Sequence record: MK327947.1
DNA length: 64,000 nt
Origin: Escherichia phage vB_EcoM_G5211
Strand: one strand, 5' to 3'
Shown here in pieces: positions 13,834-50,942 of the stretch. The notes beneath the pieces are model-generated. The model was not told where the DNA came from. It saw only the letters and a list, made by a program, of their open reading frames with translations, and made no database searches. The translations under genes and the position numbers were made by a program. The stretch's first letter is position 1, and each line of letters starts with the position of its first letter.

Positions 13834-14317
13834 ATTTTGCTAAATCATTGCAATATTTTAGTGCCTTAGTTTGAAATTCTGCGCTGTTAAGTTCTTCATA
13901 ACGGTCATAATCACCGTTTAATGCTGCTTTTCTTGCTTCTTGCTCTATCTGCATGTCAGACATGATAATACAGCGATCCCGCGCTTTCATCTTCTCAAGT
14001 TGTATAGACTCTTCTTTCTGCTTGCGCAATTCTTCTTGACGCTTCTTTTCTTCTTGTGCTTTCTCTTCCCGCGCTTCTTTGATTGCATCCTTGAACATCT
14101 GCGTTTGTGGTGCTAAACCAACTTTAACTCGATCTACGTCTCGACGTTCCATTTTAGAAATAAAGCATGATTCGATCTGATCATCACTTGCATATGCTGC
14201 TTTACATTCACGAAGCAAGAAAACCGGATCTGATTTAGCATTCATCATAGCTTCCATGTTGGCACAACCAGTAAGCATGAATGCAGCCGCAAGACCAATC
14301 AGTTTAATCATTTTCAT
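13832..14317 (-). CDS. predicted lipoprotein with coiled-coil region
   Basis: Signal peptide with lipobox LTGC; charged K/E-rich middle. Confidence 0.6.
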   Translation of the reverse strand: MKMIKLIGLAAAFMLTGCANMEAMMNAKSDPVFLLRECKAAYASDDQIESCFISKMERRDVDRVKVGLAPQTQMFKDAIKEAREEKAQEEKKRQEELRKQKEESIQLEKMKARDRCIIMSDMQIEQEARKAALNGDYDRYEELNSAEFQTKALKYCNDLAK

Positions 14318-15138
14318 TTAGTCACCTCACCGAAAATTGTAAATTGTCTACGATTCTCATCGCCGAAAGATTCTACTACGTCGTTTACCTTGACGCAAGT
14401 CCCGCGCGGTAAAATTACTTCACATTCGCAAGGGTTCCATGCAATGGACCCAACAACAAAACCTTTATGATCTTTTACATCAATCACCCATGATACATTA
14501 CAAGAATGTTGCATCTTTCCGGTCATGGATTCATATCGATTCTCACAATAAAGGCTAGTGCTGTTTGATAGCCAGCCTCCAAAGATGATCGGTGTCATGC
14601 TGGTCGATACAAAGTTTTTAAAGGTAAACTCCTTATCTTCAATGATACGCTCTATTGTCTGAATGTCAAGATGTTGACCGCGATAAAGAGTACCGTTTAA
14701 CTTTTCGGTTTTATCCATGACGCAATCCATCAAATCGACAATCTCTGATATCTCATCGGTCATGTCTTCTTCCCCTAAGAGAGCACCATTTACCCATTCG
14801 TATTGCTCAGACACATAATCACAGATTGCATTATATTCTGCTGGGGTTATGTTGTTATGTTTGTAATGTTTGAATACATTATCTCCAAAGTCTTCGGAGT
14901 GTACTTCATACATCACATTAATGATTTTCTTGACAAATCCATAATCTTGTGTCTCACGCTCAAGGAAGCGGATAACCTTCACATAATCATCAAAGTTAAT
15001 CTGATCGCTGATCATCTCAGTGATCATGTAACCATTAATACCCTCAATGTCATATGTTTCGATGTAATTATCCATACGTTCCATCATTGATTCGCGTGAT
15101 TCTTCTGAAAGACGAAAATCCTGTAATTTCTTGAACAT
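14314..15138 (-). CDS. ADP-ribosyltransferase, short Alt-like paralog (catalytic domain only)
   Basis: LYRG...FVSTS...CECEVILPRG (R, S-T-S, E-x-E motifs) aligning with the C-terminal part of the adjacent Alt. Confidence 0.75.
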   Translation of the reverse strand: MFKKLQDFRLSEESRESMMERMDNYIETYDIEGINGYMITEMISDQINFDDYVKVIRFLERETQDYGFVKKIINVMYEVHSEDFGDNVFKHYKHNNITPAEYNAICDYVSEQYEWVNGALLGEEDMTDEISEIVDLMDCVMDKTEKLNGTLYRGQHLDIQTIERIIEDKEFTFKNFVSTSMTPIIFGGWLSNSTSLYCENRYESMTGKMQHSCNVSWVIDVKDHKGFVVGSIAWNPCECEVILPRGTCVKVNDVVESFGDENRRQFTIFGEVTK

Positions 15139-15162
15139 TTTAAACCTCCCATATAACAGAAA

Positions 15163-15190
15163 ACGGGGCTAGTATAAAACTAGTCCCCGT
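15163..15190 (-). terminator. hairpin between alt and Alt-like gene
   Basis: ACGGGGACTAGTTTTATACTAGCCCCGT palindrome, U-rich tail on minus strand. Confidence 0.4.
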
Positions 15191-15216
15191 TTGAGTCAAC
15201 CATTATTTCTTAAAAA

Positions 15217-17268
15217 TTACATTTTAAATTTATCTGGCATTGCGTCTACAGATACCAGATCAGCGATAAGCTGACGTAGAGTTGCCTTATCTGCTTTCTT
15301 ACGTTCGGTTTTAGCTTCGCTAATGAAGCTGGAGAAAGACAGGTCAGAAGCAGGTTTAATAACACCTTCACGGATGAATGCATCACCGTCCGCGATCATC
15401 TCGCCAGATTCTTGTAATGCTGCCAGTTCATTTTTGTTCATAATATGTGCCTCAATGTAATAAGTTTCTTGTGAATCCGTCGATGCCGTAGCACGAGTTA
15501 CCGTATCAAAGGATAACACAACACCGCGAGGAAGTAAAATCTCGCATTCTTTGTAAGCAAATGCTTTGTTACCTACTGGCAATACAGGGATGTTTTCCGC
15601 GCCAGCAATGGAGAAAGCAACATTAGCGCCACCTTCACCGCGAGAGCCAGCCATAGAATCAACACCAGCAACGGCACTAGCCACGTTTGCATTCCAGCCG
15701 CCAAAAATGTTAGGTGCAAGGGAAGTGCTCACATAGTTTTTAAAGTAAAACGCTTTTTGCTTACGTGCAGTTTCCCACATTTGCGACCGGAAGTCCATAC
15801 CACGATACAGAATAGTACCCGGATCAAGTTTAACGCCATAGTTGGAGAAGGCATTATCCAGTGCATCGCACATCTTGACCAATTCTTCTGGATCTGCGAT
15901 GCCTTCAAACTCTTCCAGCTTACGGTCGGTTAGGAAGTTGTTCATATTGATGTATGCTGCATCGGCATATTCGCTCAACACAAAACCTTCCGCGCCCGGC
16001 AGATCAAGATCAATATCTGCCATCATTTCACCCATGTTGCTAGCAATTGCTTCAAACATACCGGAAGCAACATTACGTAGGGCATCGGTTTTAATCTGGG
16101 TGATGTGACTACGCAGCATTTCAGCTTTTACATCTGCTGGCATAGACTGGTCTACTCGATCCATTGCCAGGGCGGTGATCTTGTTTTCGAATACTTCCTC
16201 GCTCATGATTTCTTTTAAGCGTTTGATTGATGCTGCGATAACTTCCGCAGACAATGGATCATATTGATCCTGAACTTTTACCAGTTCGCTTACTGCGTAT
16301 TTTGCATCGGCTTCGCTTTCAAAAATAGTACGCATGAAACCATAGCGAGTGATAATATCACTTGTCCAGTCATTCAGAGAACGGGCGGTTGAACGTTCTA
16401 AGGCTTGACGATCAATCAGAGTATTAAACTGTTTCTTAGGTTCGGCTTCGGTGATATCTTCTTCCGGTTTAAGATTAATTTTTTCTGGATGATTCACATA
16501 GTCGCTGTTATAGGTCGCTTGAGTTTTCAGCATTTCTTCTTTAGTCAAACGAGATTTAGCCGCTACGCGTTGTTCTGCTTCCGCGTTTCGTTCTTCTTCT
16601 GACACAAGACTAGCCGCATATGCCTCATCTTTAGTCAGAGATTCACCAGTAGCCTTAGATACCCAGCGATCACCTAAATCACTTTCTACTTTAGTGAACA
16701 AGGATTCATCAAGTTTAATCCCTTTAATCTTATCAATCGCCATCCCGCGACGCTTGACAACAACTAAAGCGATCTTTTTGCTGGTCATTACTTCCTGCTG
16801 GAATACTTCAAACTTCGGTGTACGACGCACCAAACGCTCTATAACGCGCTTAACCAGTTCGGTCTTACCTTTCATGCGGGATACGTTAAAACGGAACATA
16901 ACAGCGTCTAATTGCGCTTTACGGGCTGTTTCCATAACCACATCAAAAGCACTTGACATAACTGCAATCGGGTTATCGCCTAGACCATTTTTAAGCTGTA
17001 CAATACGACCGCTTTTGTTCATTTCGCACAGTACAACATGTGCGGTCTTGTCACCCATACGAATGATTTTAGGTGTTTTGTTGGTGAAGTTACAAAGACG
17101 GACAATCACATCTTTATCGCGTGTCTGTACTGCAAAAAGCTGTTTAGGATTCTGCTTAGGCTTTAAGCACTGTACCGGAGCAATACTGCCAAAGTTTTCT
17201 TCCTCTTCCGTCAACAGCCATTTCTCGAAAGATTCAATCATTAGATCGTCGATTTCTAAGTTAAACAT
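15217..17268 (-). CDS. alt: Alt ADP-ribosyltransferase
   Basis: 683 aa; C-terminal ART motifs YRG, STS, ECEILLPRG; position after gene 54. Confidence 0.8.
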   Translation of the reverse strand: MFNLEIDDLMIESFEKWLLTEEEENFGSIAPVQCLKPKQNPKQLFAVQTRDKDVIVRLCNFTNKTPKIIRMGDKTAHVVLCEMNKSGRIVQLKNGLGDNPIAVMSSAFDVVMETARKAQLDAVMFRFNVSRMKGKTELVKRVIERLVRRTPKFEVFQQEVMTSKKIALVVVKRRGMAIDKIKGIKLDESLFTKVESDLGDRWVSKATGESLTKDEAYAASLVSEEERNAEAEQRVAAKSRLTKEEMLKTQATYNSDYVNHPEKINLKPEEDITEAEPKKQFNTLIDRQALERSTARSLNDWTSDIITRYGFMRTIFESEADAKYAVSELVKVQDQYDPLSAEVIAASIKRLKEIMSEEVFENKITALAMDRVDQSMPADVKAEMLRSHITQIKTDALRNVASGMFEAIASNMGEMMADIDLDLPGAEGFVLSEYADAAYINMNNFLTDRKLEEFEGIADPEELVKMCDALDNAFSNYGVKLDPGTILYRGMDFRSQMWETARKQKAFYFKNYVSTSLAPNIFGGWNANVASAVAGVDSMAGSRGEGGANVAFSIAGAENIPVLPVGNKAFAYKECEILLPRGVVLSFDTVTRATASTDSQETYYIEAHIMNKNELAALQESGEMIADGDAFIREGVIKPASDLSFSSFISEAKTERKKADKATLRQLIADLVSVDAMPDKFKM

Positions 17269-23272: not shown

Positions 23273-23440
23273 TTATTTGTTAATTTCTGGTGCGTTGCTT
23301 GGATAGTAACCTTCTTTAACACCCAGATATTTTGCAACCATTCCGGTGATCTTCTGTGCTACTACGATATCGAATTTCAGGTAGTCTTCACCGTGTTTTG
23401 CTACAATGTATGCTTCGCATTCTGCTTTAGTCTGGAACAT
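23273..23440 (-). CDS. 55-aa conserved small protein, copy 2 of duplicated gene
   Basis: Hand-translated MFQTKAECEAYIVAKHGEDYLKFDIVVAQK...; paralog of 20007..20174. Confidence 0.55.
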   Translation of the reverse strand: MFQTKAECEAYIVAKHGEDYLKFDIVVAQKITGMVAKYLGVKEGYYPSNAPEINK

Positions 23441-23520
23441 TTTTGATTCTCCTATATCTCGTTGGTATGTGTGTATTATAGGGGATCTCCCGATCCCCTG
23501 TCAACAACTTTTTTGAATTA
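23441..23520 (-). promoter_or_regulatory. early promoter/leader cassette with GC palindrome
   Basis: TTGACA 23509-23514, GGGGATCGGGAGATCCCC, TATAAT, GGAGAATC. Confidence 0.55.
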
Positions 23521-23994
23521 TTTTTCTTGATGCTCGCGCTCGTACTTTTCGAAATAAAATTCTACTGGCTGGTCATGAATTGACAGCAAGCCAAAGCGTT
23601 TAGCCGCTCGCAATCCCATATTGCGCTGAATGTACTTCTGGAAGTTCTCGCGTATACACTTACGCCAGTATTCTAAGCCCATACAGCTTTTATAAAGATT
23701 GCATTGTACACACGCCGGATTCATGTTATCAAGTATATCATGTTCCGGTTTATGCATTCCTACAACCTTATACTTCCACGACCCATCATCATTACGGGCA
23801 ATTCGTCCATTTTCATCATAGACTACCTTTGAGCGTCGCAATACTGGTTTGATATGGTCTGCGTGCCAGCGATCCCCTAGTTCCTCGCCACAATAGGCAC
23901 AACGCCCACCGTATTTCATTTTCAGGATCTGGCGTTGCTCTTTCTTTGACAATTTTTTAGGTTTAGGGGCTTTCGCCCCTTCATTATCACACAT
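23518..23994 (-). CDS. HNH endonuclease
   Basis: CAYCGEEL...HADHIKPV...NMNPACVQCN HNH/zinc-finger motif; overlaps 3' end of ligase gene. Confidence 0.65.
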   Translation of the reverse strand: MCDNEGAKAPKPKKLSKKEQRQILKMKYGGRCAYCGEELGDRWHADHIKPVLRRSKVVYDENGRIARNDDGSWKYKVVGMHKPEHDILDNMNPACVQCNLYKSCMGLEYWRKCIRENFQKYIQRNMGLRAAKRFGLLSIHDQPVEFYFEKYEREHQEK

Positions 23995-25483
23995 CGAATA
24001 CCTCTTTTACTGTATTTGCCGTGGTCTTGTCGTAGCGAATACGTTTGATGATTGGGAGAAATAAAGAGAACTCCGGTTCATCTTCTTTACGTGATTTGCT
24101 GCGGATATACCCGTTGCATGTCATCTCAATGACTTTTCCAATCAGGTTATGACGGTCAGCCCATAACATTTCTCGGTCGAGTTCATTTCGACGATCGAAC
24201 GGAATTACACGTTCGATACCATCATCACCTTTTTCGGTTGTGGTGTCGGTTAATCCCGATCCGGTGTTAGTCATCATTCGTCCGCACGCACTACGGACAG
24301 TAAAACCGCCTACCTTATTGGGGTCTTTACTATGCGGATATACATCAACAATTTCCGCGTCGAAGTCAATAACTTCTTTAAATTTAACCTGATCTTTACT
24401 GCGACGATCTTCAAATACACCATGTAAATTTTTAAGGATAATACCTTCTAAGCCCATGTTTACATAGCGATGATATACTTCGCGAGCTTCATCGATATTG
24501 TTAACTACAGTGTTTTCGATTATCTGAACACGAGGATCGTTAAGTTCTTCAACAATCTGTTTTAGTTCTTCGAATCGATCTTTATATTGCTTCGTTGCTT
24601 TCTCGTTTCCGTAATACACATCACGGTCGATAACATCCCAGACAGTGTAAACAATACATTGGGCTTCTTCTTTTGGAATAGTTCCTTTCAGTGATTTGTT
24701 GAGGATACCATTTCCGGTCTGACGATCTGCAACAACGGATTCTTTCACTGCTTCCGCTACTGGCGTTAATGGCATTTCATCTTCTTCAAATATCCATGAC
24801 AGAGTACCATCATAAACGCTCTCAACGAAGTTCTGCGCTGGTGTTTGCGAAAGGGTAGGCATATATACCAATTCGCCATCTAGAACAATTCCACGGCCTC
24901 GTAGACGCTCTAAAACCACAAACAAATCATCAAGCCCTTGATAGGTATTACCTGAACGGGTATAGATTGCTAATGTTTCCCCGTCAATATCAGCCATCCC
25001 ACGAGCGCCATCGCTTTTAAGTTGTGCATACGCCGGATATTTGATATTGGCAATGGTCTTATCAGAACATGACGATGCAAGGTGGCACGGCTGCTGAGGA
25101 ATCAGTTTCTTCCATACCTTGTTTGCGGTGGTAGCGGAACAACCGCATTCTAGGTCTCGATTCAGGACCATCATTGCAACTTTAGCATCGTCTTCCGACA
25201 AGCAAGTCAGAGTATCGGTAACTAGCTGTAATGCTGCATTACCAGTTATTTGACGCGTGGCAAGTTTATTTTTAAAGACCTGTAATGCGCCAGATAAAGA
25301 CAATACAGATGAATAACGCGACGGTTTATCGTATTTCTTTACGCCAAACGTAACCTGTTTGCAATATGCCAGATAAAAGCATTCTTTCAGCGTTTCATTG
25401 CTTGCAGATTCTTTCAGGATCTTTTCTTTCAGCGATGTTTTGTCTGTTGCTGCAAGCTGATTAATGATATTAAGAATTGACAT
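23987..25483 (-). CDS. 30: ATP-dependent DNA ligase gp30
   Basis: Colinear with T4 DNA ligase (FPAYAQLKSDGAR..., DGELVY, NKSLKGTI, EGIILKN); probable ATG at 25483 with GAGGTGA RBS (track start 25489 is GTG). Confidence 0.85.
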   Translation of the reverse strand: MSILNIINQLAATDKTSLKEKILKESASNETLKECFYLAYCKQVTFGVKKYDKPSRYSSVLSLSGALQVFKNKLATRQITGNAALQLVTDTLTCLSEDDAKVAMMVLNRDLECGCSATTANKVWKKLIPQQPCHLASSCSDKTIANIKYPAYAQLKSDGARGMADIDGETLAIYTRSGNTYQGLDDLFVVLERLRGRGIVLDGELVYMPTLSQTPAQNFVESVYDGTLSWIFEEDEMPLTPVAEAVKESVVADRQTGNGILNKSLKGTIPKEEAQCIVYTVWDVIDRDVYYGNEKATKQYKDRFEELKQIVEELNDPRVQIIENTVVNNIDEAREVYHRYVNMGLEGIILKNLHGVFEDRRSKDQVKFKEVIDFDAEIVDVYPHSKDPNKVGGFTVRSACGRMMTNTGSGLTDTTTEKGDDGIERVIPFDRRNELDREMLWADRHNLIGKVIEMTCNGYIRSKSRKEDEPEFSLFLPIIKRIRYDKTTANTVKEVFDV

Positions 25484-25949
25484 TTTCACCTCGTTTTGTT
25501 AAACGTTCACGAATATCATTGAGGATACTACAAAATTCCGATTCAGTCAATATAGTCTTTAACGGATCAGTTCCACCTATGCTATGACGTAATTTCTTAT
25601 TTCCGGTAGCGAGTAATGCTTTACAAAATTCTGGGTTATTCCGTGCCATCGTAACAAATGCCAGATGTACCAGTCTGTAATAATGCTCACTCATTCGATG
25701 AATAGGGCGACCCTGAAAATATAACATGTGATTCTCAATCTTTTCAGTTCTTCCGGTTCTTTTTGCTTTGCCACCGTGCATCAAAAAGATTTCTCTTTGT
25801 CTCTGAGGGTTCTTAAATCTTAGCCCCTGTAAAAATCCTTCTGTGCTGTTAATATCGCAACCAAATAGACGGAATGGTCTTTTATTGAAATTGCTCAATT
25901 CACCCGATGGATAAGGTCCACCCGCATAGATATCAATTTCAGAAGTCAT
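25470..25949 (-). CDS. NADAR (YbiA-like, DUF1768) domain protein
   Basis: Aligns by eye to E. coli YbiA: ELSNF...STEGFLQGLRF (cf. FSNF...TSEHYFQAQKF) and CKALLATGNKKLRHS (cf. LRALLLATAPAKLVEHT). Confidence 0.6.
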   Translation of the reverse strand: MTSEIDIYAGGPYPSGELSNFNKRPFRLFGCDINSTEGFLQGLRFKNPQRQREIFLMHGGKAKRTGRTEKIENHMLYFQGRPIHRMSEHYYRLVHLAFVTMARNNPEFCKALLATGNKKLRHSIGGTDPLKTILTESEFCSILNDIRERLTKRGENVNS

Positions 25950-26124
25950 TGAAACTAATCTCGCTAATCAGAGAGAACGGATCATAATCGTCATTAGGAA
26001 TATCGATAGTAATCGAATGAGGATTTACCCATACACCAAACTGGCCTTCTTCGGTGAATACTTCGGTATGGATTTCGTGGATGTTTACATTCATAGTTTT
26101 CATAATAAATTCCTTAATAATCAA
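25939..26124 (-). CDS. hypothetical protein
   Basis: ORF only. Confidence 0.4.
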   Translation of the reverse strand: MIIKEFIMKTMNVNIHEIHTEVFTEEGQFGVWVNPHSITIDIPNDDYDPFSLISEISFNDF

Positions 26125-26154: not shown

Positions 26155-26173
26155 GGCGGGATTATTTCCCGCC
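26155..26173 (-). terminator. hairpin after gene 31
   Basis: GGCGGGAAATAATCCCGCC then U-rich. Confidence 0.5.
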
Positions 26174-26549: not shown

Positions 26550-26870
26550 TTATTTATAAATTTCGACGATCTGCTCTGTAGTCAGCCCGTCTACATTAAT
26601 CAGACTATCAAGCCCAAAACTACGGAAACCTTCAACTGCAATTTCATATACTGGCAAAGATGTTTCTGATTCTTTACGCGGTTTTTCAACATTCGGAACT
26701 AACCACTTTTCGTATGTTTCAAACGGCATCAGTGCCGGATCTCGCGTGGCGATCATCTCACAGACAGTACCATCTTTCTTAGTAAACTGCAAAGAGTGAG
26801 TACCGACCGAAAACATTTTCTTTAGTGCTTCACGAAGTGCGATATTATCAACTTGTTCAGTCATTATCAA
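26550..26870 (-). CDS. hypothetical protein
   Basis: ORF only. Confidence 0.45.
   Translation of the reverse strand: MIMTEQVDNIALREALKKMFSVGTHSLQFTKKDGTVCEMIATRDPALMPFETYEKWLVPNVEKPRKESETSLPVYEIAVEGFRSFGLDSLINVDGLTTEQIVEIYK
26551..26558 (-). promoter_or_regulatory. late promoter TATAAATA upstream of gene 31
   Basis: exact TATAAATA on minus strand about 40 nt upstream of ATG. Confidence 0.5.
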
Positions 26871-49451: not shown

Positions 49452-50942
49452 ATGGCAGATTTGAAACATGGATCTACTGTAGGCGGATCTCCCATTTGGA
49501 CGCAAGGAAACTTGACGATCCAGCCAGCGGGTGATCAGCTTTTCTACAAAGGTCATAAAATCTATACCGCTTTTGATAAACCTTCGGCTGCCGATTTTGA
49601 TGCTGTTAGTGCATCCGAAGGGGGTACATTTCAGAAACTGGTCCATTTTGAGGAAGGTTTAAGCGTAGGTAGCGCATCCGGTGGAGAAACCAAAAAGAAC
49701 GGGATCTTTAAAGGCAATAGTGATGCGGCTAACTTTGACGGTGTAAGTTGGGGTTTGCATTCGTGGAAATCTATTGGTTTTGTTAATGCTCGTGATGATG
49801 TTATCATGGCTTATATTGACACTACCACAGGTGATTTTAAAACTAAAGGGACCATCGAAGGGACAACCATTAAAGACACAGGTCAACGCGTCTATAGCCC
49901 TGTTAATAAACCAACGAATAATGATTTAGATTTGGTGTCTCGTCGCGGTGATACCCTCACAGGAACATATAATTTAAACACTGTCACTGTTAAACTATCG
50001 GTTGATTCGAAATTAATTGCAAGGGAACGTGATTTAATTAATTTTGATGCGACTAAGATCTATTATGGTAACGTTCTTGATACGTTGGTCTTCCGAAGTA
50101 AAGATGAGCCTACCATTTTTGTTAATGGCAGAGAAGGTCGTTTTTATCACACCAACAATAAACCAACTAAAGCCGATGTTGGGCTAGGCAATGTCACCAA
50201 TGATGCACAGGTTAAACGTGCTGGTGATATTATGGAAGGTAACTTGCAAGCGCCTAGAATGTTGGCGACAAACGATCCGGCTGGTCCTAATGAATTGGTT
50301 CGTTTGAGCTACTTTGAGAAAAAATCAATGGTAGCAAATCCAACCATCATAGGAAACGTTGATTGGAACACTCTTATTAATCGCGGTATCTATCGTGTGG
50401 AAAATGCTGGGTCAGGTACTAATAAACCGTCTGATAGCTATTATAACGGCGTTTTGATGGTATATCGCCCAGAAGATGCGGTCGGTACTCGTCGAATTGT
50501 TCAGGTATACTATCCTGAATCTATTGATCATCCGATGTGCTGGCGTTCTTGTTCTAATGAATCATGGACTGCATGGAACTATGTAGATCACCGTAAATTG
50601 GCTGATATTCGCTATGTTAACGTCACTGGCGATACCATGACAGGACCGTTAACTGTTCCGGCGGCAAATGGCGTTCATACCGCAGAAGCTAACTATAATG
50701 GTGATAATTGCTACGCTGGACTTAATAGCTTAAATGGCACAGCAATGATTCATCGTGTTAGTGATATTAAAGCGCACGAGAAACTAGGCATCACACATGA
50801 TTCTAAAATTATTTTCGTTAAATCACGCAACAATACTCAGGACACCGATACATTTGAATTATACCACGAAGGACACAAACCAACTCCTGATGATGTTGGC
50901 GCTGTTCCGCTTAATGCGGTAATTGATTTTGGTACTTTCTAA
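49452..50942 (+). CDS. 36: gp36 long tail fiber distal connector (enlarged, 496 aa)
   Basis: N-terminus MADLKxGSTxGGSxIWxQGN as in T4 gp36. Confidence 0.8.
   Translation: MADLKHGSTVGGSPIWTQGNLTIQPAGDQLFYKGHKIYTAFDKPSAADFDAVSASEGGTFQKLVHFEEGLSVGSASGGETKKNGIFKGNSDAANFDGVSWGLHSWKSIGFVNARDDVIMAYIDTTTGDFKTKGTIEGTTIKDTGQRVYSPVNKPTNNDLDLVSRRGDTLTGTYNLNTVTVKLSVDSKLIARERDLINFDATKIYYGNVLDTLVFRSKDEPTIFVNGREGRFYHTNNKPTKADVGLGNVTNDAQVKRAGDIMEGNLQAPRMLATNDPAGPNELVRLSYFEKKSMVANPTIIGNVDWNTLINRGIYRVENAGSGTNKPSDSYYNGVLMVYRPEDAVGTRRIVQVYYPESIDHPMCWRSCSNESWTAWNYVDHRKLADIRYVNVTGDTMTGPLTVPAANGVHTAEANYNGDNCYAGLNSLNGTAMIHRVSDIKAHEKLGITHDSKIIFVKSRNNTQDTDTFELYHEGHKPTPDDVGAVPLNAVIDFGTF

Follow-up and report, generated by a model that had tools for sequence, protein, structure and literature searches.

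We analysed 64,000 nucleotides of Escherichia phage vB_EcoM_G5211 (MK327947.1), hereafter called the window, in which gene 30.3 lies within the gene order 31, 31.-1, 30.3, 30 (Table 1). The gene encodes a protein of 159 aa, and its end overlaps the DNA ligase gene (gene 30; PF01068, E=5e-22), as an earlier note on this DNA had reported. The ligase ATG, at 25483, has a GAGG ribosome-binding site ahead of it inside 30.3 and is also the start given in the RB49 and W115 annotations. With the GTG upstream of it, at 25489, as the start, the overlap grows to 20 nt. At its other end, 30.3 overlaps the small gene 31.-1, which encodes 54 aa from an ATG at 26103 and matches phrog_15277. The mechanical ORF list instead places the start of 31.-1 at a TTG at 26124 (61 aa), but the ATG is favored because the phrog_15277 match starts at residue 8 and because RB49 and W115 annotate the ATG.

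Table 1. Features of the gene 30.3 region and of the two ADP-ribosyltransferase genes, in window coordinates.
Feature	Coordinates	Strand	Basis or equivalent residues
Gene 30.3, probable adfN ortholog; ATG start, 159-aa stand-alone phage-NADAR domain	25470..25949	-	PF08010, T4 gp30.3 homology
Overlap of 30.3 end with DNA ligase gene 30 ATG, 14 nt	25470..25483	-	Sequence; RB49 and W115 annotation; relative L005
Overlap of 31.-1 end with 30.3 start, 11 nt	25939..25949	-	Sequence; RB49 annotation
E37, putative catalytic Glu, codon GAA	25839..25841	-	T4 E36, YbiA E48, Phytophthora NADAR E43, E. coli C7 NADAR E88
R44, phosphate-binding catalytic Lys position, codon AGA	25818..25820	-	T4 K43, YbiA K55, Phytophthora K50, E. 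coli C7 K95
H122, last-strand His, codon CAT	25584..25586	-	T4 H124, YbiA E125, Phytophthora E125, E. coli C7 D171
Predicted C-terminal alpha-helix, residues 136-157	25479..25544	-	AF2 secondary structure
Terminator-like hairpin, 3' of gene 31	26155..26173	-	Consensus scan, weak
ADP-ribosyltransferases (Alt-like; 274 aa and 683 aa)	14314-15138, 15217-17268		PF03496

In the terminator-like hairpin, 6 of the 7 stem base pairs are GC and a T run follows; it sits just upstream of the translationally linked 31.-1/30.3/30/HNH block. In consensus scans, promoter and terminator matches were no more frequent in the region than in shuffled sequence. The minus-strand ORF at 26550-26870, which lies between cd (dCMP deaminase) and gene 31, corresponds to T4 31.1 and carries a WYL_2, Sm-like SH3 beta-barrel domain (PF10902, E=7e-9). 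On the other side of the ligase gene, the HNH endonuclease that had been noted at 23518-23994 was confirmed (PF01844, E=5e-6). This ORF, on the minus strand, shares 8 nt (23987-23994) with the stop end of the ligase gene. The same place downstream of gene 30 holds alt.1 and alt in T4, and not an HNH gene, which suggests a homing-endonuclease insertion beside the ligase. At 23400-23520, a 3.2-kb query matched W115 (L001 3001-4640) and most other Krischviruses in two pieces spread over ~4.7 kb. Downstream of the HNH gene, those genomes have ~1.5 kb of additional small hypothetical ORFs (W115_134-138) that are missing in the window, and the site appears to be a variable spot for accessory genes.

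Krischvirus genomes (RB49, W115, FL38, kaaroe and others) match the region at 97-98% identity. These phages are virulent, T4-like myoviruses of E. coli and belong to the Straboviridae, outside Tevenvirinae. The window protein itself is 100% identical to RB49 gp30.3, deposited as AJ550428. Relatives are widespread: tblastn with the window protein found them in 1,509 phage records, and an exhaustive HMMER search returned 973 clusters when grouped at 50% identity. We compared the gene with a metagenomic relative (L005) whose protein is 69% identical, which has matching synteny and an equal 14-nt ligase overlap. This comparison gave a dN/dS of ~0.11, with synonymous sites near saturation. Because of this value and the relatives in phage records, gene 30.3 is not a chance ORF.

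The window protein matched Pfam family PF08010 (Phage_30_3) at 132.5 bits, against a 36-bit gathering threshold, over profile positions 2-138 of 138. The earlier note had placed it in the NADAR family and had proposed a search against PF08719 (NADAR/DUF1768) as the check. The score in that search was 15.5 bits (E=0.021), below the 35.1-bit gathering threshold, so the protein has no formal PF08719 membership. We rejected a direct PF08719 assignment on this sub-threshold match and on the replacement of the last-strand Glu by His. A PF08719 profile match is nevertheless a misleading test here and would wrongly reject the protein, because its correct Pfam family is PF08010. At the superfamily level, the NADAR claim held. 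Weak PF08719 matches were found for 33 of 68 family members (best E 1.1e-6), and the 68-sequence family profile had YbiA as its sole match in the PDB (E=0.0015). Profile-to-profile alignment with YbiA by hhalign gave 94.7% probability (E=6.3e-8, 134 columns). On these three results, NADAR superfamily membership of the window protein is firm. The protein has a YbiA-like alpha+beta fold, with a helical core between two small beta-sheets. The likeness to E. coli YbiA along most of the length, seen by eye in the earlier note, thus stands for the family profile, but the single sequence shows it only weakly (23% identity by BLASTP across 107 aa, E=0.006). A PDB search with the single sequence returned only DltA (E=3.8e-4), which is spurious. 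Among other resources, the NCBIfam model 'NADAR family anti-phage protein' was far below threshold (13.8 bits against a 240-bit cut-off), the PADLOC models gave no match to the window protein, and PHROGs assigns it to phrog_652, 'unknown function'.

The PF08010 domain also has forms other than the stand-alone phage protein. In ~470-aa proteins (P0024, P0039 and P0076; 465-497 aa) it is C-terminal, behind an N-terminal part of ~320 aa with no Pfam match. Other architectures include fusion to a calcineurin-like phosphoesterase (Metallophos; P0058), fusion to BspA-type leucine-rich repeats (P0061) and tandem duplicates (P0019 and P0021).

To place the active-site residues, we mapped the protein by BLASTP alignment to T4, hhalign to YbiA and alignment to the Phytophthora NADAR, and scored conservation in 157 family representatives; residue roles follow published work on the NADAR active site (PMC11543638, PMC11825919). 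Conservation of the catalytic residues, another check proposed earlier, gave a split outcome. E37 and H122 are kept, at positions that are Glu in 156/157 and His in 155/157 representatives, but the catalytic Lys is replaced by R44. That position is Lys in 145 (92%) of the 157 representatives and Arg in 8; the members with Arg belong to at least three separate lineages. All other near-invariant family residues are kept. Judged from the alignments, R44 is a natural substitution of Arg for the catalytic Lys, and L005 also has Arg at this position. In the NADAR of E. coli C7, the equivalent K95R change preserved guanine-ADPr hydrolysis in vitro and abolished rescue of cells from DarT1 (PMC11543638). 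K63 of the window protein pairs with E. coli C7 K115 through the hhalign alignment, a tentative correspondence that crosses a gapped region. T4 has Gln at this position, and in E. coli C7 the Lys is needed for antitoxin function in vivo and not for catalysis. The C-terminal helix is intact, with the BLASTP alignment extending to the C-terminus of T4 gp30.3.

The gp30.3 family was placed in the NADAR superfamily in 2012. Its members form a 'phage NADAR' branch, defined by a last-strand His at the position of Glu in the YbiA family and of Asp in the DarG1 NADARs (PMC11125620, PMC11543638). T4 gp30.3 was shown in 2024 to act on DNA in vitro, hydrolysing guanine-ADP-ribose and not thymidine-ADP-ribose (PMC11125620). 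In 2025, Johannesman et al. renamed it AdfN (anti-DarT factor NADAR) as an anti-DarTG1 factor. AdfN frees DarT1-modified DNA of ADP-ribose, and deletion of adfN makes T4 sensitive to DarTG1 (PMC11825919). Rescue by T4 AdfN is impaired by E36A, by K43A, which leaves partial rescue only, and by a 15-residue C-terminal truncation that is the natural RB69 allele; this allele lacks the C-terminal helix and is inactive (PMC11825919). In a transposon screen, adfN was dispensable on plain K-12 and required only on DarTG1 hosts (bioRxiv 10.1101/2025.11.20.689424). For the T4 ortholog, both the enzyme activity and the phenotype on DarTG1 hosts are already in the literature, and the finding is not new. 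Our literature search found no report of a Krischvirus protein or phage tested against DarTG.

By BLASTP, the window protein is 38% identical to T4 gp30.3 (residues 3-150 vs 2-152, E=2e-30). The two proteins share their size, a core NADAR domain without extensions, the catalytic Glu, the last-strand His and the intact C-terminal helix, and both are encoded between genes 31 and 30 of a T4-like E. coli myovirus. They differ in R44 for K43 and in K63 for Gln, and the window phage, as a Krischvirus, lies outside the Tevenvirinae. In the T4 annotation, 30.3 is one of many small genes (30.9 to 30.1) that separate rIII/31 from gene 30, and alt adjoins gene 30. With 30.1 and 30.2 missing from the window, 30.3 directly adjoins the ligase gene and overlaps it, and we found no T4-like internal 30.3' ORF of at least 40 aa inside the gene.

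Compared with other characterized NADARs, the window protein is more distant. The DarG1 NADARs (BC4488 family; Geobacter lovleyi 8BAT, E. coli C7) have a last-strand Asp and an N-terminal beta-beta-alpha extension and are encoded beside DarT1, whereas the window protein lacks the extension and is an orphan, without a toxin gene nearby. We rejected identity as a DarG1 antitoxin on the last-strand His, the core domain without extension, and the neighbors 31.-1 and ligase. YbiA (2B3W; PF08719) is about 21-23% identical and has Glu in place of the His. It is a host N-glycosidase tied to riboflavin intermediates, swarming and a LexA operon, and gives no DarT1 protection in cells. AdfN-Bas32 (T5-like) and AdfN-Bas60 (Vequintavirinae) are phage orphan NADARs that counter DarTG1, like T4 AdfN. 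They are independent acquisitions from other NADAR branches and, unlike T4 AdfN, neutralize DarT1 without infection.

The ORF, its family and fold, the conservation of key residues and purifying selection are established for the gene in the window. From these and the T4 homology, the gene is most likely the Krischvirus (RB49-type) ortholog of T4 gene 30.3/adfN, encoding an orphan-antitoxin-like glycohydrolase that would remove DarT1 guanine-N2-ADP-ribose from phage DNA. The counter-defense role proposed in the earlier note gains support from the orthology to T4 AdfN at 38% identity with E37 and H122 kept. In the proposed mechanism, the protein would be expressed from the 31.-1/30.3/30 (ligase) gene block, host DarT1 would place ADP-ribose on guanine N2 of phage DNA, and the AdfN ortholog would most likely cut the N-glycosidic bond to ADP-ribose. 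Homology would place E37 and H122 on either side of the distal ribose, with R44 touching the phosphates. Removal of the adduct would let phage replication go on in DarTG1-carrying E. coli. We infer that the RB49-type protein acts as T4 AdfN does, across 38% identity and with Arg for the catalytic Lys. Counting against the AdfN reading are the low identity, this Arg, the sub-threshold PF08719 score and the activity of T4 AdfN, which is context-dependent since it fully works only during T-even infection (PMC11825919). A rather unlikely variant is that R44 and K63, under purifying selection, mark a functionally shifted AdfN with another substrate range or efficiency, or one free of T-even-specific helpers.

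It is unlikely that the protein is an active NADAR hydrolase whose main substrate is something other than DarT1-modified phage DNA, such as guanine-ADPr RNA, adducts of other ART toxins (YarT- or pierisin-like), or soluble ADPr-derived immune signals. All NADAR families tested, T4's included, also remove guanine-ADPr from RNA (PMC12945103), and the Lys-to-Arg change at the phosphate-binding position could mean an altered substrate preference. However, no gp30.3 protein has a demonstrated phenotype other than DarTG1 counter-defense, the Glu and His of the active site are kept, and no soluble substrate has been demonstrated for the family.

The same substitution raises the question of a weakened or non-functional relic allele, comparable to that of RB69, in which an essential Lys has become Arg. 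The failure of E. coli C7 K95R to rescue from DarT1 in vivo and the partial rescue by T4 K43A fit this explanation. We consider it very unlikely, however, in view of the dN/dS of ~0.11 in a lineage that keeps R44 across 31% protein divergence, the retention of the other near-invariant residues and the recurrence of Arg in separate lineages. K95R is also active in vitro, and the window ORF is full-length with its C-terminal helix, unlike RB69. The earlier note had further linked the NADAR to two ADP-ribosyltransferases at 14314-17268, both of which we confirmed (PF03496, E=4e-16 and 2e-9). Reversal or tuning of ADP-ribosylation by these enzymes is most improbable: they do lie in the window, and T4-like NADAR genes are expressed early, together with ARTs (Iyer et al.), but they are 8-11 kb from 30.3 in a separate gene block, T4 Alt and Mod modify proteins (T4 annotation), the reported NADAR activities concern base-ADPr in nucleic acid (guanine, cytidine) and riboflavin-pathway intermediates, and T4 needs adfN only in the presence of DarTG1.

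No homologs of T4 AdfA (61.2), AdfM (tk.4), 30.1, 30.2 or ModB were found in the window. Elsewhere in its genome, the complete relative W115 encodes a homolog of the AdfM (tk.4) macrodomain with 44% identity (L009 93-548; W115 record 50093-50548) and a ModB-like gene. T4 tk.4 was named AdfM, an anti-DarTG2 factor, in a 2025 preprint. A homolog of AdfA (T4 61.2) was absent from the complete W115 genome. The genus Krischvirus thus appears to carry both enzymatic anti-DarT factors and not the toxin-binding one. Since W115 has the anti-DarTG2 factor AdfM and lacks AdfA, AdfN is the sole recognizable anti-DarTG1 gene in a W115-type phage.

In conclusion, the identical RB49 gp30.3 has been in GenBank since 2003, and the value of this analysis is one of annotation: what is a 'hypothetical protein' in most Krischvirus genomes can be described as an AdfN-like phage NADAR. 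The remaining point of interest is that this lineage naturally carries Arg in place of Lys at the catalytic position where, in a bacterial NADAR, the engineered change split in vitro activity from in vivo protection.
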